In this document: in pieces, positions 5,835 through 56,951 of the stretch
How positions within the stretch are numbered: position 1 is the first letter of the stretch
How the letters are laid out: the number at the start of each line of letters is the position of its first letter
From: Pseudomonadota bacterium
GTDB lineage: Bacteria > Myxococcota_A > UBA9042
DNA length: 64,000 nucleotides
Assembly: GCA_005792545.1 (NCBI GenBank)
Contig: SXRM01000319.1
Location: 696 to 64,695, forward strand
Direction of reading: 5' to 3'
The notes under the pieces: model-generated
Told to the model about the DNA's origin: nothing
Seen by the model: only the letters and a program-made list of their open reading frames with translations
The model's database searches: none
Position numbers and translations under genes: made by a program

Positions 5835-6127
5835 CCTTGTGATGATCTAGCCTTGCGGAGGCAAGGCTTTGCACCCACAGGCCGCGGCTTTAGCCGCCGG
5901 CAGTATTTAGCAGGACCGTGTGGGTACCGTGCCGGCGATCGCCCCCATTTCAGGAACCGCACCCGACCACGATTGCCGAGCTAGCGCTGGTTGTCACGAC
6001 ACCGTAGAATCGGCGCGCCGGCCATGCTGCTGTCCGCCAGAACTCAGGGTCGAACGTCAGATCCCGAGTACCGACAAGCTGAGCGGGTCGCGCGCTGGGA
6101 GCACGGCGCGCCAAAGGATCGATCGGC

Positions 6128-7702
6128 GTGTGGCGGATCTGCTCCCAATGCGGCAACCGAACAGACGCTTTCGTCTGTGACCGCGACCAGAACCCCACTG
6201 AAATTATCCGCGCCGACACCGAGTTTCCTGGTCGCCTGCACCAGGGCGACGTCCTGCTGAACCACTATGTAGTGGCAGATCTGGTCGGCGTAGGTGGCAT
6301 GGGCGCAGTCTACAAGGGTCAGCAGCGCGAGACGCACCAGGCCGTCGCCATCAAGGTGCTGTGGCGCGATCTGGCCGCCGACACCGTCGAGGTCCGGCGC
6401 TTCACCCGCGAGGCGCGAGCGGCAAGCCTGCTTGCGCACCCCAATGTGGTGCGCGTCATCGATTTTGGCAGCGACGCCAAGTCCAAGTCGCTGTTCATCA
6501 TCATGGAGTACCTGGTCGGCGCCAAGCTCAGCGACACCTTGCGCGTCGCGCCGATGCTGGAACCCGCACGCGTCGTGCACATCTGCGCGCAGGTCTGCAA
6601 AGCGCTGGAAGAGGCTCACCGACGCGGCATCATCCACCGCGACGTCAAGCCCGATAACATCTTCTTGCAAGAGGTGGCGGGCGAGCGCGACTTCGCCAAA
6701 ATCCTCGACTTCGGCCTCGCCAAGTTCATTACCGGCGAGTACGAGCGCGATCAGCTGACGCGCAGCGGCTTTGTGGTCGGTTCGCCCGAGTACATGGCGC
6801 CAGAGCAAGCGTCTGGCAGCCCGGTGGGGCCTTCGGCCGACCTGTATTCGCTGGGCGTGGTGCTCTACGAGTGCCTGACCGGTCGGCTGCCCTTTGATGC
6901 CGCAAGCACAGCCGAGGTGCTGCGCAAGCACATTCTAGAAGGCCCACCGCGGCTGATCGGAGAGCCCGGCACCGAGCACATCCCGTTGGCGCTCGAAGAG
7001 GTCGTACTGCGCTGCCTGGCCAAGGATCCGGCCGAGCGACCACCGACGGCCGATACGCTGCGCATCCAGCTTTTGCAGGCGTGTGACCGCCGCAAGGGCG
7101 AGGGCAAGTGGCCGGCGGGTGGTGCGCTGGCCGCGCCGATTCGCGCTCCCGGTTCGCTCGAGGAGGCGGGGCCGGCGCCGCACGCGCCGACGTCTGTGCA
7201 ACTGGATGACGACGGCCGGGCGACCGCGCCGACGGCGGAGCACGTCGTCCACTCGTTGGAACCGACCAGCTGGCCCACCTTGCGCGACAACGAAGTGGTG
7301 GCGACCGGCACTGGAAGTGGCGAATTCCAAGGTGCCGACCAGGATCGCACGCCGCGCGAGCCGATTGCGGCGATGGCACGCGGAGCAGTGCCGGACATCG
7401 CGACCCATAGCCAGACACGGCCCGACATGCCGGTGGCGCCGACCGCACTGGCGGCCGTGGTGCGCGAGGATGCGCTGCCCACCCTGGCGGATATTGCCGA
7501 CGCGGGCCGCACCTCGCGACCGCTTACGGACGCGCTGGATCGCGACTCGACCGACGTGCTAGACACCAGCCTGCGCCCGGGTGCGCAAGGCCGATCGGCG
7601 CCGACGCTAGACCGCGGGCAGGCTGGACCGTCATACTGGCTGTGGGTCGTCGCTGCGGCCGTCGTCATTGCGGCGCTGCTCGTCGTTGCGACCATGAAGT
7701 AG
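6128..7702 (+). CDS. Ser/Thr protein kinase with N-terminal Cys4 ribbon-like motif and C-terminal membrane anchor
   Basis: Kinase motifs GVGGMGAVYKG, AIKVL, HRDVKPDNIFL, DFGLAKF and GSPEYMAPE. N-terminus CSQCGNRTDAFVC. C-terminal hydrophobic segment WLWVVAAAVVIAALLVVA. GTG start; exact start uncertain. Confidence 0.9.
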   Translation: MWRICSQCGNRTDAFVCDRDQNPTEIIRADTEFPGRLHQGDVLLNHYVVADLVGVGGMGAVYKGQQRETHQAVAIKVLWRDLAADTVEVRRFTREARAASLLAHPNVVRVIDFGSDAKSKSLFIIMEYLVGAKLSDTLRVAPMLEPARVVHICAQVCKALEEAHRRGIIHRDVKPDNIFLQEVAGERDFAKILDFGLAKFITGEYERDQLTRSGFVVGSPEYMAPEQASGSPVGPSADLYSLGVVLYECLTGRLPFDAASTAEVLRKHILEGPPRLIGEPGTEHIPLALEEVVLRCLAKDPAERPPTADTLRIQLLQACDRRKGEGKWPAGGALAAPIRAPGSLEEAGPAPHAPTSVQLDDDGRATAPTAEHVVHSLEPTSWPTLRDNEVVATGTGSGEFQGADQDRTPREPIAAMARGAVPDIATHSQTRPDMPVAPTALAAVVREDALPTLADIADAGRTSRPLTDALDRDSTDVLDTSLRPGAQGRSAPTLDRGQAGPSYWLWVVAAAVVIAALLVVATMK

Positions 7703-7723
7703 CCATTCGTGGTTTGGAGACCC

Positions 7724-9271
7724 ATGCGAACCAGCGGCGCGACAAAGCAGCGAGGCGCCGCCTGGTTTGCGGTTTGCCTCGCCGTCACCGTTTGGGGCTG
7801 CGGCGAGGACGCTTCCGTCACGCCAACGCTGTCGGCCGGTACGGCAGGCGATGCCGGCGTAGGCGAAGCGCCAGTGGCGCAAGACGGCGCATCTTTGGAC
7901 CAGGCCGCCCTCGATGTGGGCACTTCGATTTCGGACAGCGACGTTGCGACCGGGCAAGACGCGACAGTCACAACCGACGACAGCGACGGCGCGGTCGGCG
8001 AGGCCGCAGCGGTCGACGTCGAGGTGGCTGCCGCAGACGGCCAGACCGGCGAAGATGGCGCATCCAGCGATGGGCTGGCCGACGGCCTCGCCGACGCGAC
8101 AGCAGCCGACCAGGCGATCGCGGACCAAACTGCCAGCGATCAGACTGTCGCAGACGCGTTGCAAGCGGACGCGCTACAAGATACTGCCGCGGACATCCCT
8201 TCCGGTGCTGCGGATGGAGGCGACGGCGCCGGTACTGAGTGCCCCAAGCTCTGCAATGGCGGCTGCGGCGGCGGCGTGTGCCACATCGTCAACGCGCAAT
8301 ACCCGATTTGCCCCGACGGCATGCCGTGCGAGGTGGTGTGCAACGTCGCCAACGCCTGCCCGACGCCGGTGGTGTGCGGCAACGGTCCGTGCACGGTCAT
8401 CTGTGGCGGCAACGGCGCCGTTGGCACCTGCAAAGGCACGGTCATCTGCAAGAACGCGCCGAGCTGCGACATCACCTGCAACGGCACCGACGCCTGCGCG
8501 GGCAAGGTGTTCTGCGGCATGGGCACCTGCAAGATCGCGTGCGGCACCAATGGCGCCATCGGCACCTGCAAGGGCGGCACCGACTGCAGCCTGGCCAAGA
8601 CCTGCGACGTCGCCTGCACCGGCAGCTACGCGTGCAAGGGCACGGTCGCCTGCGGCGGCAAGTGCAAGGTCGCCTGCGGCGCGACCGGCGGGGTCGGCAC
8701 CTGCGAGGGCGGCATCGACTGCGCCGACGGCGACAGCTGTGACCTGCAGTGCGTCGGCATGTATGCGTGCAAGGGCGACGTCGAGTGCGGCAGCGGCCCT
8801 TGCACGGTGGCCTGCGGAATGGGCGGCGGCGCGGCCACTTGTGGGGCCAATGTGCGCTGCAACGACGCCCCGACTTGCAAGGTCGATTGCCACGGCAGCA
8901 ATGCCTGCGGTGGCCAGGTCGAATGCGGCACCAGCGACTGCAACGTCAACTGCGGCGCAGGCGGTGCCATTGGCACATGCGGCGGCGGCATCGACTGCAC
9001 CGACGGCAAGTCGTGCAAGCTCAGCTGCCTGGGCAGCAACGCCTGCGCGGGTGGTCAGGTCGAATGTGGCCAGGGTCCGTGCCAGATCGCCTGCGGAGCC
9101 AAGCCCTCTGCCGGTTCAGGGCAGTGCAAGAACGTCGATTGCTCCAATGCTTGCGCCTGTGAAGTCAGCTGCGCCGGGCTCAACAGCTGCAAAAGCCTGA
9201 TTTGCCCGGCGGGCTGCGCCGGTGGCAGCGGGTGCTCGGCGTTGTCCAAGACCTGCAACGCCTGTCCGTAG
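7724..9271 (+). CDS. cysteine-rich tandem-repeat lipoprotein (unclassified repeat family)
   Basis: ATG at 7724 gives the signal MRTSGATKQRGAAWFAVCLAVTVWGC (lipobox). An acidic D/A/T-rich linker follows. Then come six tandem ~46-aa units with 8 Cys each, roughly nt 8327-9150. I counted 62 Cys in the C-terminal ~340 aa. The gene starts 22 nt after the kinase stop. Confidence 0.8.
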   Translation: MRTSGATKQRGAAWFAVCLAVTVWGCGEDASVTPTLSAGTAGDAGVGEAPVAQDGASLDQAALDVGTSISDSDVATGQDATVTTDDSDGAVGEAAAVDVEVAAADGQTGEDGASSDGLADGLADATAADQAIADQTASDQTVADALQADALQDTAADIPSGAADGGDGAGTECPKLCNGGCGGGVCHIVNAQYPICPDGMPCEVVCNVANACPTPVVCGNGPCTVICGGNGAVGTCKGTVICKNAPSCDITCNGTDACAGKVFCGMGTCKIACGTNGAIGTCKGGTDCSLAKTCDVACTGSYACKGTVACGGKCKVACGATGGVGTCEGGIDCADGDSCDLQCVGMYACKGDVECGSGPCTVACGMGGGAATCGANVRCNDAPTCKVDCHGSNACGGQVECGTSDCNVNCGAGGAIGTCGGGIDCTDGKSCKLSCLGSNACAGGQVECGQGPCQIACGAKPSAGSGQCKNVDCSNACACEVSCAGLNSCKSLICPAGCAGGSGCSALSKTCNACP

Positions 9272-51072: not shown

Positions 51073-52719
51073 ATGTCGCGCATTCTGCCAGTCTTTTTCG
51101 CCGCTTTGGCCTTGATCGCTGCCGCGACGGCCCACGCCGAACCGATCCAACTGGCGGCGCAAGGCCGCCTGACTTCTGCGGGCGGCAGCCCGGTTGCTGA
51201 TGGTGGGTACGCGCTAGGCGTAGCCATCTACGACGTGCAGGCCGGCGGGGCGCCGCTGTGGAACGAGGCCTTTCTGTCGGTGCCGGTCCAGGGTGGCGTG
51301 TTTGCCGTCACGCTGGGCGGGGCGCTGAGCAAGCTCGACAGTGGCGTGCTGGCAAGCGGCAAAACGGCGTGGATCGGCGTCACCGTCGGCGCCGACCCTG
51401 AGTTGCCGCGCCAGCCGCTATTGCGCGTGCCCTCCGCAGTGCACGCCATGATCGCAGCGCAAGCAGGCGACCTGCAGTGCACGGGGTGCGTCGGCAGTGA
51501 CGACATCGCCAAAGCCGCGATCACCGGCGAGAAGATCGCCAAAGGCGCCGTCGACGCCAGCCATGTCAGCTTTGCGTGGGCTGGCGCGGAGAGTGCCGGC
51601 GGCGCCGCGACCTTCGCGCTGGGGGCCAATACCGCCAAGCTCGCCGACGCCGCCAAGAATGCGGAGAACGCCGCCTTTGCCGACGAAGCTGCCAGCGCCA
51701 AGAGCGTGCAGTGTACCGGCTGCATCACCGCCAAGCACCTGCACGACAAGGTGGCCGAGGACCTGGTGGCCGGCGGCAAGCTGGCCAAGGTCGCGACCAG
51801 CGGCAAGTACGCGGACTTGCAGGGTGGCCCTGATCTCAGCGGCTACGGCGCGCTTGCCGCGGCCAACAAGTGGACGCAACCCCAGGAGCTTGCGGCGGGT
51901 GGCAGCCTGGATGCGGCGCTGAATTTCAACGCCAACGAGGCCAAGCTACTGCGCCTGCAAAACGTCGACAAAGACCCAATCGCGTGCGACAGCAAAGCAA
52001 TCGGCGTGGTGTACTACAACACCGCAACGTCTTCGCTGATGGTGTGCAACGGCAAGCAATTCGCCGCGTTCGCCTATGCGATTGCCGTCGGCAGCGATCA
52101 GAAAGCGCCGGGCCAGTCGTGCCTCGACGTCCAGAGCAAGGCCGGCGCCAAGACCGACGGCTTGTACTGGATCGACCCCAACGGCGGCAGCAACGCCGAC
52201 GCCTTCCAGGCCTACTGCGACATGACCAAGGACGGCGGCGGCTGGACGCGCGTGATGTCGGCCAAATGGAAGTTCTTCTTTGGCGACACCAACTGGAATT
52301 CGCACAACCAGTCGGCGCCGATGGACCCCAACTACTCGATTCTCAACCACCGGGATTACTTCAAGAAAGATAAGACCTACACCTTCCGCTTGCAGGTCGG
52401 TCAGACCGGCGACTGGACCCACCCGGCCATCGACCACTTCACGGTCTGGACCCAGGACCACGATCCCTTCACTGCGGCGTCCAACGGCTCGGATTTCAAG
52501 CACATCGCCGGGACGCTCAGTTCGACGTGTGGCAACTTCAATGGGTTGCACAACAAGTACACCACCTACAGCTACACTTGCGATCCGGACACCAGCGACG
52601 CGGACGGTTGCTGGTGGATGCAGATCGTGCCGAAGAAGGACTACAACAACAGCGGCTACCTGGAAGGTTGGGGCGGCAGCGGCAACTATCACAACTGGCA
52701 AGTGTTGTGGATTCGCTAG
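51073..52719 (+). CDS. secreted protein with C-terminal fibrinogen-related (FReD/FBG-like) domain
   Basis: ATG at 51073 with AGGAGG at 51064-51069. Signal MSRILPVFFAALALIAAATAHA-EP. C-terminal SCLDVQSKAGAKTDGLYWIDPNGGSNADAFQAYCDMTKDGGGWTRV matches the fibrinogen C-domain core (..YCDM.TDGGGWTV). Confidence 0.8.
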   Translation: MSRILPVFFAALALIAAATAHAEPIQLAAQGRLTSAGGSPVADGGYALGVAIYDVQAGGAPLWNEAFLSVPVQGGVFAVTLGGALSKLDSGVLASGKTAWIGVTVGADPELPRQPLLRVPSAVHAMIAAQAGDLQCTGCVGSDDIAKAAITGEKIAKGAVDASHVSFAWAGAESAGGAATFALGANTAKLADAAKNAENAAFADEAASAKSVQCTGCITAKHLHDKVAEDLVAGGKLAKVATSGKYADLQGGPDLSGYGALAAANKWTQPQELAAGGSLDAALNFNANEAKLLRLQNVDKDPIACDSKAIGVVYYNTATSSLMVCNGKQFAAFAYAIAVGSDQKAPGQSCLDVQSKAGAKTDGLYWIDPNGGSNADAFQAYCDMTKDGGGWTRVMSAKWKFFFGDTNWNSHNQSAPMDPNYSILNHRDYFKKDKTYTFRLQVGQTGDWTHPAIDHFTVWTQDHDPFTAASNGSDFKHIAGTLSSTCGNFNGLHNKYTTYSYTCDPDTSDADGCWWMQIVPKKDYNNSGYLEGWGGSGNYHNWQVLWIR

Positions 52720-52753: not shown

Positions 52754-55700
52754 ATGAAAACCGGGATTTGGATTGCGCTGTGCGCGGTGTGCGCGGCTTG
52801 CGTTGGCGGGGGCGCTTCGGGTCCGGCTGCGGGCGGAGCCGCCCAGACCGGCGCCCAGGATAGCGCGGCGGCCTCCGCAGACGGTGCAGCCGTCACGGAC
52901 ACCACGGCCACCGGTGACACCACGGTGCAAGACGGCGGCGTTGCGCCGGATGGACCTGCTGTTGACGAGAGCGATACCGCGGCCGCAGATGTAGCGGGCG
53001 TAGACGCAGACGACGCTGCTGCCGAAATCGCCAAGCCGGTCGCCAAGCCCACCCTTGCGTTCACGTCGCCCAAGCCGGGGGCCAAGTTTGCGGTCGGGGC
53101 CACGGTCGACATTGCGCTGCAGGGTACCGTGGACCCGGTTGCGGTAACCAAGGCCAGCCTGGCCTGCAGCATCGACGGCAAAGAGGGCCTGTGCGCGGGT
53201 CTAGGCCTTACCTTTGGCGGCGGCGATCCGATCCCGGTGACCGTCCAACTGGCGGTCGTCGCCGAATTGCCGGGCGCACATTCGCTGACGGCGGCACTCG
53301 ATGATGGGCTGGGGGGCGTCGCCAAAGCCGAATTGACGTTTACCGTCAATGGCAAGCCGAGTGCCCCGGGAATGGACCTGCAGCCCAAAACGCCGACGGT
53401 GCTCGACGACATCGTGGCGGTACAGACCCAGGCGGCGGTCGACCCGGATGGTGACAAGCTGACGGTCAAGACCACCTGGCAAGTCAACGGCGCCGACAGC
53501 GGCGTCACTGGCGACACCTTTGGCAAAGGCAAGGCCAAAAAGGGCGACACCGTGACAGCCGTCGCCGTCGCCACGGACAGCGAAGGCAACGCCAGCGAAC
53601 CAGGCAAGGCGGAGGTCAAGATCGCCAACGCGGCGCCCGGCAAAGCCTCCGTGGCCGTCGGCGCTGCCAAGGCGGGATTCAAAGACAAACTCTCGGCAAA
53701 GATCGTCGTTGCGGCGACGGACCCGGATGGCGACGAGTTGGCCTACACGTACAGTTGGACAGTAGACGGCCAGGTGCTCGCCGGCCAGACAGCGCCTACG
53801 CTGGATCTAGCGACCGCCACCTGGCCGGCTGGCCAGCCCAAAAACGGCGCCGTCGTTCAGATTGGCTGCACGGTCAGCGACGGCGGCGCCACTACGCCGT
53901 GCGCGACCACGGGGGCTGGCGCGGTCTTGCAAGACGGCGACCCCTGTGGCGCGACACCCGCACCGTGCGCGACAGATGCCAGCTGCGCCAACGCCGACGG
54001 CAAGGCGGTCTGCACCTGCAAGCCGGGGTTCGTCGGCGACGGCAAGGCGTGCGTGGACACCGACGAATGCAAGGCCAGCACCGGGACATGCGACAAGAAC
54101 GCGGTCTGCGCCAACACACCGGGCTCCTTCACGTGTACGTGTGCCAAGGGCTATTCGGGCGACGGCAAGCTGTGCAGCGACGTCGATGAGTGCAAAGCCA
54201 GCCCGCCGCCCTGCGACAAGAATGCGATCTGCACCAACAGCCCAGGGACGTTTGGGTGTGCGTGCAACAAGGGCTTCACGGGCGACGGCAAGCTGTGCAG
54301 CGACGTCAACGAGTGCGCGACCAACAACGGTGGCTGCGGCGACCCCGCGGTGTTTGCGTGCGTGGATCAGCCGGCCGGCGCGACGCCCGTTTGCGGACAG
54401 CCCAAAGGCCCGAACTTGAACGAGGGCGATCTGATTGTGACCGAGATCATGGCCAACCCGGCCAAGGTGGCGGACGAAGTTGGCGAGTGGGTCGAGATCC
54501 GCAATACCACCGCGCAGTCGATCGCGCTAGCGGGTATTGTGGTTCGCTCCGGGCTGACGCAACAGTATGTGATCACGGGCAGCGCGACGCTGGGGGCCGG
54601 TCAGTTCTTGGTCATCGGCGCGAGCGCGGATGGCGCGCAAAACGGCGGTATCCCTGTTGGGCTGTCGTGGGCCGTGACGCCAGTCGCTGGCCAGATCAGC
54701 CTGGCCAACAACGCCGACGACGTGTGGCTGACCAGCAACGGCAAGACGCTCGACAAGGTGGCCTACGACATCGCCAAGGGCTGGCCCAACGTCAACGGCG
54801 CGTCGATGCAGTTGACCGCGACCAAGCTGACGGCGCTCGCCAACGACACCCCAGACAACTGGTGCGCCAGCGCGGCCGCCTTTGCGACAGGCTCTGACAA
54901 AGCCTCGCCGACCAAGGCCAACGCCACCTGCCCGCTCGACGCCGACAAAGACGGCATTGACGACCCGGTCGACAACTGCCCGAGCATCGCCAACGTCGAC
55001 CAGAAGGACGGCGACGGCGACAAGAAAGGCGACCTCTGCGACAACTGCGTGGCGGTGATCAACGCGGATCAAGGCGATGCGGATGACGACAAGATCGGCG
55101 ACAAGTGCGACAACTGCCCCGCGACAGCCAACGCGGATCAGAAGGACGGCGACGGCGACAAGATCGGCGACGCCTGCGACCCGAACCCTGGCCCGGTGTG
55201 CGGCAATTCCACCATCGAACCGCCCGAGACCTGCGACGATGGCAACCAGAAGCCGGGCGACGGCTGCGGCGCCGACTGCAAGAAGGAAGTCGTAGGCGGC
55301 TCCGTCTCTGTGGGCGACCTGGTGGTCAGCGAAATCATGGCCAACGGCAACGGCGGCAACGGCGACCTCGGCGAGTGGTTCGAGATCAGCAATGTCTCCA
55401 ACAAAAACCTGGACTTGAATGGCCTGTCGATCACCGGCAAGAGCAGCGACACGCCGATCGTCGTCAGCGTCAGCATCCCGATCAAGCCCGGCCAGGCACT
55501 GGTGTTCGCGCCTTCGAGCGACGTGACCAAGAATGGCGGCCACACGCCCGCCGTGACCTACACGCAAAGCAAGTTCCCGCTCGCCAACGACGCCGACACC
55601 ATCACCATCAACCTGGGCACCACGGTCATCGACACCGTGAGCTACGACACCAGCAGCGCCGGCAAATGGCCCTTCGTCACTGCCGGCAAGGCGCTACAGC

Positions 55701-55894
55701 TGTCCGCCAGCAAGCTCGACGCCGGTGCGAACGACGCCAAAGACAACTGGTGCTACGCCGGCAAGACTTTTGGCGGCTTGGGCGACCTCGGCTCGCCATC
55801 GGCACCCAACGCGGTCTGCGCGCCGCCACCGGTATCCAAGCCGGCAAGCGTCTGGCAATGGCTTGGGTGGTTCTGGGCGTGGTTTGCCGGGTGA
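52754..55894 (+). CDS. large mosaic lipoprotein: Ig-like repeats, cbEGF-like domains, two lamin-tail domains, thrombospondin type-3 repeats, Myxococcus cysteine-rich repeat
   Basis: ATG at 52754 ([16 protein letters not shown], lipobox). DTDEC/DVDEC/DVNEC cbEGF signatures at about 53940-54360. LTD blocks [10 protein letters not shown]...GEWVEIRN and [10 protein letters not shown]...[8 protein letters not shown]. TSP3 run [15 protein letters not shown]...[17 protein letters not shown]...[15 protein letters not shown] at about 54938-55185. [28 protein letters not shown] is the Myxococcus Cys repeat. Confidence 0.85.
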   Translation: [1046 protein letters not shown]

Positions 55895-56024
55895 CGGTCG
55901 GTCGAATGAAGCGGTCAGCCTCCGAATCTTGCAGCCCTGAGCGTATCTGAGCTGCGCTCAACCCAAATCGGTAGTGCTGCTGCCGGCAGCTTCGTTGTCC
56001 TGCTGCCTGTGCTAGCCTCTGCCG

Positions 56025-56951
56025 ATGCGCTACCGCCGCGCCGCGTTTCTGGCTTCTGTCTTTCTGCTGACCCCGGCAGCGGTGTTGGTCGTCGTCGGCG
56101 TGCTGGTGCTGGTGTACCAGCGCGAAGGCCTCGACATCGCCTTCGGCGTGCTGATCTTGACGTTGTGCGCGTTGCTGCTGGCCGGCACCGGCGTGCTGGT
56201 GGTGACGTTCAAGCGCTCGGCAGATCTGTCGCGCCTGCAAGCCGACTTCTTGAGCAAGGTCAGCCACGACTTTCGCACGCCGCTGACCAGCATCCGCATG
56301 TTCGTCGAGACGCTGCGCGAGGGTCGCATGCAGGACAGCGCCCAAACGGAGCGGGTGCTGGCGCTGCTCGGACAGGAGACTGAGCGCCTGTCGACCATGA
56401 TCGATCGCCTGCTGGACTTTGCACGCCTCGAAGCCGGCAAGATGCGCTACGACCGCGGCGCAGTGGAGCCAGAGGCCATCGTGCGGCCGGTAATTGCGCG
56501 CTTTGAGCCGCGCATGCACGGTCAGTCCACGGAACTGACGTGCGAGGTAGAGCCGTCGCTGCCAAAGGTCGATGTCGACCTCGACGCGCTGCAAGAGGTG
56601 GTGCAGAACCTGCTCGACAACGCGTTCAAGTACACCCAGGTTCCCAAGAAGATCGCAGTGCAGGTACGGCGGGCACAGCGCGCGTTGCCGCAGATGGGCG
56701 CCGAAGAAATCGAGATCGCGGTCAGCGACAACGGCCCAGGCATTGCCCGCAGCGAACATCGGCGGATTTTCGAACAGTTCTACCGGGTGGACGACCGCCT
56801 TGCGCGAGCAACCGAGGGATCCGGCCTCGGCCTGGCCATCTCGCAGCTCATTGTGCACGCCCACGGCGGGCGCATTCGGGTCGAGAGCGCGCCGGCGCAT
56901 GGCGCGACATTCGTGGTCACGCTGCCGGCGGTCGGCAGTGGTCCGGCCTGA
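56025..56951 (+). CDS. sensor histidine kinase (two N-terminal TM segments, no adjacent response regulator)
   Basis: H-box FLSKVSHDFRTPLTSI. N-box LLDNAFKYT. G-boxes SDNGPGI and GSGLGLAI. Confidence 0.88.
   Translation: MRYRRAAFLASVFLLTPAAVLVVVGVLVLVYQREGLDIAFGVLILTLCALLLAGTGVLVVTFKRSADLSRLQADFLSKVSHDFRTPLTSIRMFVETLREGRMQDSAQTERVLALLGQETERLSTMIDRLLDFARLEAGKMRYDRGAVEPEAIVRPVIARFEPRMHGQSTELTCEVEPSLPKVDVDLDALQEVVQNLLDNAFKYTQVPKKIAVQVRRAQRALPQMGAEEIEIAVSDNGPGIARSEHRRIFEQFYRVDDRLARATEGSGLGLAISQLIVHAHGGRIRVESAPAHGATFVVTLPAVGSGPA

Follow-up and report, generated by a model that had tools for sequence, protein, structure and literature searches.

What does a bacterium do with a long protein assembled from modules of the kind that build the extracellular matrix of animals, and does such a protein form a working unit with the genes that lie beside it? 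The question is raised by a 1046-codon open reading frame (ORF) in a 64,000-nucleotide stretch of DNA, here called the window, from a member of the Myxococcota_A lineage UBA9042 (contig SXRM01000319.1 of assembly GCA_005792545.1). An initial annotation had read this ORF as a lipoprotein carrying epidermal growth factor-like (EGF), thrombospondin type-3 (TSP3), lamin-tail (LTD) and cysteine-repeat modules, and had joined it with an upstream gene for a fibrinogen-related domain (FReD) and a downstream histidine kinase into a calcium-dependent adhesion or matrix locus. Our analysis confirms a real gene for a long, acidic, disulfide-rich, lipoprotein-type secreted mosaic of immunoglobulin-like (Ig-like), EGF, LTD, TSP3 and Cys-repeat modules. 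On balance, we think it probable that the product is a lipid-anchored stalk, stiffened by Ca2+ and disulfides, which is exposed at the surface or embedded in the matrix and serves there for adhesion or for organising the matrix. That the three neighbouring genes form a functional locus is not supported. Below, the protein is P0001 and the genome of the window, which is 78% complete, is G000; P0003 is a relative 79% identical to P0001, and P0006 is encoded on contig C74 of genome G001.

The gene and its modules

The frame is uninterrupted on the forward strand of the window (52754-55894), AAGGAA sits 5-10 nucleotides 5' of its ATG, and its GC content at third codon positions (GC3, 0.78) and overall (0.64-0.67) are both as in the neighbouring genes, all of which bears out the 1046-residue ORF. 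Given this native GC and GC3 and modules that are widespread in the phylum, we rejected a recent horizontal acquisition of the gene. The mature protein has a net charge of -60 and an even number of cysteines after Cys16 (40), so that 20 disulfides are possible.

Domains were called with Pfam and NCBIfam hidden Markov models (HMMs) against their curated cut-offs, on the whole protein and on cut-out segments, and structures were predicted with AlphaFold and compared with Foldseek. Pfam scores for the whole protein, in bits with the cut-off in brackets, were 93.8 (28.5) for EGF_3, 74.6 (27) for EGF_CA, 72.1 (26.6) for cEGF, 90.9 (34.3) for LTD, in two stretches, and 26.7 (25) for TSP_3. The AlphaFold model of the whole chain has a mean predicted local distance difference test score (pLDDT) of 78.9; residues 1-94 are disordered and the remaining modules are folded, except the Cys repeat. 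From the N-terminus, with window coordinates and strand, the parts are the following, calcium-binding EGF modules being abbreviated cbEGF.

52754..52801, +: signal peptide and lipobox-like V-C-A-A-C16, residues 1-16 (translation; family alignment)
52802..53038, +: acidic low-complexity disordered linker of 79 residues, 17-95, net charge -13 (composition; pLDDT ~28-34 over residues 1-94)
53039..53953, +: three Ig-like beta-sandwich domains, 96-200 Big_7-like, 201-295 and 296-400 with DPDGD (HMM, AlphaFold, Foldseek)
53954..54055, +: EGF-like module without calcium-binding signature, residues 401-434 (EGF_3 38.9 bits vs 28.5)
54056..54301, +: two canonical cbEGF modules, 435-475 (DTDEC) and 476-516 (DVDEC) (EGF_CA 44.6 and 41.9 bits vs 27)
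54302..54418, +: truncated four-Cys EGF-like module opening DVNEC, residues 517-555 (passes no HMM; conserved in P0005 and P0006)
54419..54919, +: LTD1, residues 556-722 (LTD 54.5 bits vs 34.3; pLDDT ~90)
54920..55189, +: TSP3 run, three 23-residue units and a fourth Asp-rich motif, residues 723-812, net charge -17 (TSP_3 35.4 bits vs 25)
55190..55303, +: one Myxococcus Cys-rich acidic repeat, residues 813-850 (TIGR02232 36.9 bits vs 20.8)
55304..55819, +: LTD2, residues 851-1022 (LTD 48.4 bits vs 34.3)
55820..55894, +: Pro-rich spacer and Trp-rich C-terminal tail, residues 1023-1046, and stop codon (translation; predicted helix 1033-1045)

Every module that the initial annotation had named (the DPDGD Ig-like repeats, EGF, LTD, TSP3 and the Cys repeat) is thereby confirmed by HMM or by structure prediction, and the HMMs for the EGF_CA, TSP_3 and LTD segments all score above their cut-offs; the Pro-rich spacer and Trp-rich tail were absent from its list. 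Its count of three calcium-binding EGF signatures has to be revised: four EGF-like modules are present, and only those opening DTDEC and DVDEC are canonical cbEGF, whereas the DVNEC module is truncated. The six-cysteine PROSITE-type EGF_CA/Asx-hydroxylation pattern, [DEQN]-x-[DEQN](2)-C ... C-x-[DN]-x(4)-[FY]-x-C, is matched at residues 435 and 476 only, and the DNA units of these two modules, 123 nucleotides each, are 72% identical. In the module before them (401-434) EGF_CA reaches 24.3 bits, under the cut-off of 27; the one after them (from 517), with four cysteines, fails the EGF_CA pattern and gives a weak match to FXa_inhibition (E 0.004), also under cut-off. By sequence, the closest solved relatives of the EGF region are the EGF region of NELL2 (5e-28), Notch1 and fibrillin.

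The Ig-like region is recognised mostly by its predicted structure. Big_7 scores 24.8 bits at residues 99-180, just over its cut-off of 24.1, and the DPDGD repeats at 201-295 and 296-400 gave no HMM match in the segment scan; AlphaFold models the region as all-beta domains (pLDDT 85-96), for which Foldseek finds Ig, fibronectin type III and cadherin arrays. The TSP_3 segment scan gave three stretches, with motifs at residues 729, 752 and 775 and a fourth at about 798. The TSP3 units show a 69-nucleotide periodicity in the DNA, and they match thrombospondin-2 (1.8e-20) and COMP in sequence. The match of TIGR02232 spans residues 815-845 and is overlapped by DUF4215 (PF13948), marginally under its cut-off (26.5 bits vs 27); AlphaFold confidence is low in this repeat (pLDDT 42-52). 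Residues 851-1046, modelled separately (pLDDT 84.8, predicted TM-score 0.79), retrieve lamin A/C and lamin B1 Ig-fold tails at ranks 1-13 of a Foldseek search of the PDB (E from 3e-4, TM-score normalised to the target ~0.47-0.71), and the predicted fold of LTD2 is thus a lamin-type Ig-like beta-sandwich. With the whole 1046-residue model, the Foldseek matches were all generic arrays of Ig, EGF and TSP modules, one of them, to a 'grappling hook' protein, being non-specific. As far as motifs can tell, the Ca2+-binding consensus is intact in the two cbEGF modules and in three to four TSP3 repeats.

A proposed lipid-anchored, calcium-stiffened stalk

The putative lipobox at the N-terminus is unusual. 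Across 33 family members, most with canonical L-x-[GA]-C lipoboxes, the alignment column that holds Cys16 is conserved to at least 90%, and positions -2 and -1 fit [LVI][ASTVI][GAS]C; position -3, however, is a cysteine, making the motif V-C-A-A-C atypical. We infer that a lipid on Cys16 anchors the protein in the outer membrane. Beyond this anchor, an intact Ca2+-binding consensus in a mosaic of cbEGF, TSP3, LTD and Cys-repeat modules makes a calcium-dependent role in adhesion or in the matrix the natural inference, and to that extent we agree with the role first suggested, although not with its extension to the FReD gene and the kinase.

The working of such a stalk can be pictured as follows. 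From the lipid on Cys16 in the outer membrane, the 79-residue acidic linker would act as a flexible leash for a semi-rigid rod of Ca2+-loaded Ig, EGF, TSP3 and Cys-repeat modules. This rod would measure some 35-40 nm, as estimated from typical module sizes, and so would exceed the width of the periplasm. The two LTDs, the Ig domains, or both, may be the ligand-binding parts, and the Trp-rich tail, at the far end, could partition into a membrane interface or mediate self-association. Several points weigh against this picture. The lipobox has its cysteine at -3; exposure on the surface, as opposed to the periplasm, is deduced from size and module types only; the literature has not settled on a role for bacterial LTDs (PMC6085458); and we found no experimental data for any member of the family.

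The tryptophan-rich tail

The C-terminus follows a layout that recurs in the family: a last LTD ending ...G[ST]PGxxNxxC, a Pro-rich spacer of 8-20 residues, and then 10-16 residues rich in Trp, Phe and Tyr. In P0001 the tail contains a predicted helix at residues 1033-1045, of moderate confidence (pLDDT ~70), and for its last 15 residues the Wimley-White scale gives an interfacial free energy of -10.9 kcal/mol; the hydrophobic stretch, about 15 residues, is too short for a transmembrane helix. Only two ORFs of the window's genome carry the tail, P0001 and its paralog on contig C172 (about 5886-9263, minus strand; ...KGAWSSFWSWFFGG), and both belong to the LTD family. Elsewhere it is present in all three tandem genes on contig C40 of genome G002 (locus L045), in family members of the same-genus genomes G003, G005, G006, G007, G009 and G010, in G016 (genus g7) and, more diverged, in G014 (genus g5). 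Among the homologs it is found in P0003, P0005, P0006, P0007, P0018 and P0034, and in a looser form in P0013, while many family members are without it. A homolog search limited to LTD2 and the tail returned 12 proteins only. Composition and position of the tail are kept across paralogs and at least three genera (g1, g5 and g7), and its sequence varies.

A C-terminal sorting signal was one candidate explanation. Tripartite signals such as MYXO-CTERM, PEP-CTERM and GlyGly-CTERM consist of a signature motif, a transmembrane helix of about 20 residues and a basic cluster, and many proteins of a genome bear them. No model of such signals (NCBIfam CTERM, E<=0.1) matches P0001, there is no terminal Arg/Lys cluster, and only two ORFs of this genome carry the tail; we therefore rejected a tripartite signal of the exosortase or MYXO-CTERM type. 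The tail may instead anchor the protein at a membrane interface or let it associate with itself.

Taken one step further, the Pro-rich spacer and the Trp/Phe-rich peptide might constitute a previously undescribed distal anchor for membrane interfaces. With the N-terminal lipid in the outer membrane of the producer and the tail in a second membrane, be it that of a sibling cell, an outer-membrane vesicle or a prey cell, the rod would bridge the two and tether the cell. The predicted helicity and favourable interfacial energy of the tail fit such a tether, as does its place behind a Pro-rich spacer at the end opposite the lipid, and a composition kept without its sequence is easier to reconcile with a biophysical function than with an enzyme that recognises the tail. 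But this evidence is compositional alone, the tail could equally fold into the cell's own membrane, pack on a partner protein or drive oligomerisation, and its pLDDT of about 70 and its absence from many family members do not help. We regard tethering by two anchors as a speculative option, unlikely as it stands.

Possible ligands of the lamin-tail domains and the side of the membrane

If the LTDs of the stalk bind something, its nature may be constrained by their charge: each carries a net -6, and a polysaccharide or a surface protein is for that reason a likelier ligand than naked DNA. Bacterial LTDs have been proposed to serve in membrane association and as an aid to nucleases (PMC6085458; PMC5118699), and, with LTDs on extracellular nucleases and DNA-uptake proteins in mind, one could see in P0001 a matrix scaffold in which the LTDs bind extracellular DNA or exopolysaccharide and Ca2+ bridges the acidic protein to the polyanion. 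Indeed, LTD2 has relatives, 34-35% identical, fused to Exo_endo_phos nuclease/phosphatase domains (P0125 and P0128), the ExeM nuclease is slower in vitro without its LTD (PMC6085458), and LTDs occur in archaeal proteins of extracellular DNA metabolism (PMC5118699). Nucleases of the ExeM/NucH type resemble P0001 in bearing an LTD on an exported, Ca2+-associated protein, but P0001 lacks a catalytic domain and any other DNA-related domain. The LTD of ExeM is moreover dispensable for DNA degradation in vivo (PMC6085458), and the charge of each LTD and of the protein as a whole (-60) is unfavourable to binding a polyanion. A scaffold of this kind is rather improbable to us.

The stalk might also point inwards. 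Lipoproteins sorted by the Lol system go by default to the inner leaflet of the outer membrane, and a massively acidic protein rich in Ca2+-binding motifs could serve in the periplasm as a Ca2+ buffer or an envelope strut. Against this, the estimated length of rod and leash, derived from module sizes, is greater than the width of the periplasm, the same types of module are found on the surface proteins TraA and TraB, and members of the family reach about 4000-7000 residues. We give a periplasmic strut little credence, and retain the outward-facing stalk.

A common family with a rare combination of modules

How unusual is this protein? A word-indexed homolog search, in which 8000 candidates were scored, gave 576 relatives. 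Among the top 120, some 70 come from uncultured Myxococcota and are lipoproteins made of 2-5 cassettes of LTD, TSP3 and Cys repeat. An exhaustive HMMER search with the cassette alone (residues 556-1022) reached 2336 representative clusters at E<=1e-30; in several of them, proteins of at most about 4000 residues, a single alignment spans the cassette from end to end. Giant proteins of about 4000-7000 residues (P0131, P0134, P0164 and P0237) match the cassette with 10 to 28 stretches each, and P0131 (3988 residues) aligns to the entire cassette in a single stretch.

The fused form, in which Ig-like and EGF modules precede a cassette with two LTDs and three to four cbEGF-type signatures are present, was seen in only about six clusters (P0003, P0004, P0005, P0006, P0010 and the fragment P0034), and the Ig-EGF-LTD fusion also in the same-genus genomes G001, G002, G004 and G009. 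Across the Myxococcota, then, the cassette is very common and its fusion to the Ig-EGF part much rarer. Identity to P0001 drops from 79% in P0003 to 44% in P0005 and 42% in P0006, and the same-genus counterparts (P0006 and those on G002:C40) are 42-50% identical. ORFs of roughly 450-520 residues, which made up most of the outcome of the locus search, were discarded as counterparts together with their conserved neighbours, their match being confined to the LTD-bearing half (residues ~545-1025). P0001 has modules in common with at least 16 other large ORFs of the window's own genome.

A common family is not necessarily a known one. The initial annotation had allowed that the gene might belong to a common, already characterised adhesin family; the numbers above make it common, and of a characterisation we found no trace. 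The relatives are named only by domain labels ('lamin tail domain-containing', 'DUF4215 domain-containing', 'cysteine-rich repeat protein'), and literature searches on LTD proteins in myxobacteria, on MtsC and on EGF-like modules in Myxococcota gave nothing on this family.

The calcium-binding EGF module itself is no rarity. Of the 201 genomes sampled across the phylum, 83 (41%), spread over 64 of 142 genera, have an EGF_CA (PF07645) match above the curated cut-off, against none of 14 control genomes, and most genomes of the window's own family have at least 34 matches; a literature search on its occurrence across the phylum found no paper. The parts are therefore eukaryote-like by name, but common among these bacteria, and such a spread implies that the modules have long been resident there. 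That P0001 imitates the matrix or ligand proteins of eukaryotes, having been acquired from one, and acts on a eukaryotic host or prey with the adjacent FReD-like lectin, would agree with its best solved relatives being metazoan (NELL2, Notch, thrombospondin), with the COLFI/FReD-like gene 34 nucleotides upstream and with a paralog that joins an EGF array to a FReD-like motif (C94, see below), but it is very improbable in view of this long residence, the native base composition and a FReD adjacency that is recent and species-level. Apart from its unexplained tryptophan-rich tail, P0001 is a fairly ordinary protein for its phylum.

Exchange of modules between paralogs

The two halves of P0001 have different relatives at home. 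Its N-terminal half (linker, three Ig-like domains and EGF array) is common to the paralogs on contigs C44, C244, C166 and C360 of the window's genome, and its C-terminal half to C172, a paralog with four LTDs, to whose last LTD its LTD2 is 64% identical. The same division appears when P0001 is compared, segment by segment, with its counterparts at tandem loci (P0005 and P0006) and with the 4-LTD group (P0122 and P0009).

Ig: P0005 38%, P0006 38%; P0122 and P0009 no match
EGF: P0005 56%, P0006 52%; P0122 and P0009 no match
LTD1: P0005 46%, P0006 41%; P0122 38%, P0009 40%
TSP3: P0005 68%, P0006 64%; P0122 43%, P0009 48%
Cys repeat: P0005 55%, P0006 58%; P0122 72%, P0009 69%
LTD2: P0005 43%, P0006 40%; P0122 64%, P0009 62%

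These identities indicate that the distal module of P0001 was swapped in from the 4-LTD lineage, or converted by it. On this comparison of sequences, P0001 is a mosaic for which two paralog families exchanged modules, with a breakpoint near residue 812, where the TSP3 run gives way to the Cys repeat.

The neighbouring genes

The two genes that the initial annotation had enlisted lie on the same strand as that of P0001.

51073..52719, +: upstream neighbour, 548-residue secreted protein with a COLFI/fibrinogen-C-like C-terminal domain (COLFI 48.2 bits vs 26.2; Fibrinogen_C 22.1 vs 22)
56025..56951, +: downstream neighbour, 308-residue histidine kinase (HisKA and HATPase_c matches)

The COLFI/FReD-like gene ends 34 nucleotides 5' of the P0001 gene, a gap short enough for the two to be co-transcribed. 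The gene order glgA-glgC-PARG-unknown-COLFI-P0001 is kept, however, only in the 79% relative. In G001 (C74, P0006) and G002 (C40), a 4-LTD gene is followed in tandem by the Ig-EGF-LTD gene or genes. A TPR gene borders this array at one end, BKACE, MopE-like and GAF-HD genes border it at the other, and the vicinity contains no FReD gene and no kinase. The window's genome has the same flanks around its own 4-LTD gene (C172:1-10000), without an Ig-EGF-LTD gene. The ancestral site of the Ig-EGF-LTD gene thus appears to be a tandem array behind the 4-LTD gene, from which P0001, by this comparison of gene orders, was secondarily relocated next to the FReD-like gene in its species group. With adjacency confined to the 79% relative and no FReD gene at the tandem loci, the pairing is recent and species-level and does not represent a conserved system.

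FReD-like modules are otherwise abundant in the window's genome, where at least 25 ORFs carry the ~60-residue COLFI/FReD-like motif of the upstream gene (e.g. C150, C102, C434, C391 and C200). One large paralog, C94, joins an EGF array and, after it, a FReD-like motif in a single protein (BLAST to the motif of P0002 weak, E 0.003), a weak hint that EGF and FReD-like modules work in the same kind of protein. We relied on C94 and set aside C44, whose C-terminal domain looked FReD-like by eye and was not confirmed by Pfam.

C44 (ORF of ~1466 residues) is an EGF-array lipoprotein with the Ig N-module of P0001, and it ends in a region of about 400 residues in which Pfam matches nothing but one EGF module. 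Its terminus, ...DEAFGVDNLSVWYQ, is common to many EGF-rich homologs (P0023, P0024, P0028, P0029, P0031 and P0055), and the region may be an undescribed C-terminal domain.

The histidine kinase begins 130 nucleotides 3' of the P0001 gene, across a gap that holds a weak hairpin (55975-55990). It has two transmembrane helices with almost no loop between them, as in the intramembrane-sensing type, and so would have no extracellular sensor. The genes after it encode SH3_3 and M48 peptidase proteins, with no response regulator among them, and the contigs of the relatives end before the position of the kinase. With no extracellular loop and no conservation shown, we rejected the kinase as a sensor for P0001. 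The proposal of a functional locus of FReD gene, P0001 gene and kinase is not supported.

Relation to known systems

The nearest kin of P0001 are the uncharacterised multi-LTD lipoproteins of the Myxococcota (e.g. P0057, P0060, P0070 and C172), which mostly carry a canonical lipobox and repeat the cassette of LTD, TSP3 and Cys repeat. Its last cassette is 62-72% identical to that of the 4-LTD group, and a subset of these proteins has the Trp-rich tail. The 4-LTD proteins begin with a Cys-rich N-terminus, whereas P0001 has in its place the three Ig-like domains and EGF array, and only two LTDs.

Among characterised proteins, those nearest to P0001 in their Ca2+ and disulfide modules are MtsC and, in the same phylum, the outer-membrane-exchange receptors of M. 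xanthus, the surface proteins TraA, with Cys-rich repeats in its conserved C-terminal region, and TraB, with TSP3 (PMC6372800). TraA and TraB, however, have neither LTD nor EGF modules, and P0001 is anchored by a predicted N-terminal lipid. Pfam and NCBIfam scans found in it neither the PA14-like variable domain and MYXO-CTERM of TraA nor the beta-barrel and OmpA domain of TraB, so that it does not qualify as a protein of the TraA/TraB type. MtsC (MXAN_1334; PMC12475490), a MYXO-CTERM protein of cell-cell cohesion, has TSP3 repeats in common with P0001. The MtsC model (NF047638) gives P0001 97.9 bits over model positions 66-124; we rejected membership, as the equivalog cut-off is 350, only the TSP3 stretch is aligned and MYXO-CTERM is missing.

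Likeness to metazoan matrix proteins is at the level of modules only. NELL1/2, fibrillin, Notch, thrombospondin-2 and COMP have the same cbEGF consensus, with its Asx-hydroxylation pattern, or the same TSP3 motif DxDxDGxxDxxD with paired Cys, while the architecture of P0001, its lipid anchor, LTDs and Cys repeat are bacterial. In thrombospondin the TSP3 repeats are followed by a C-terminal lectin-like domain, and in P0001 they are not.

What the gene tells about the family

Taken singly, this gene matters little: thousands of clusters make up the family in which it is one domain-shuffled variant. Modules of cbEGF, TSP3, lamin-tail and FReD/COLFI-like type, usually regarded as components of metazoan matrix, are standard parts of surface lipoproteins across a branch of the Myxococcota, and they are exchanged actively between paralogs. 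The multi-LTD lipoproteins form an entire family that is functionally unstudied, and their family-specific Trp-rich tail gives a concrete way into the question of their anchoring or assembly.

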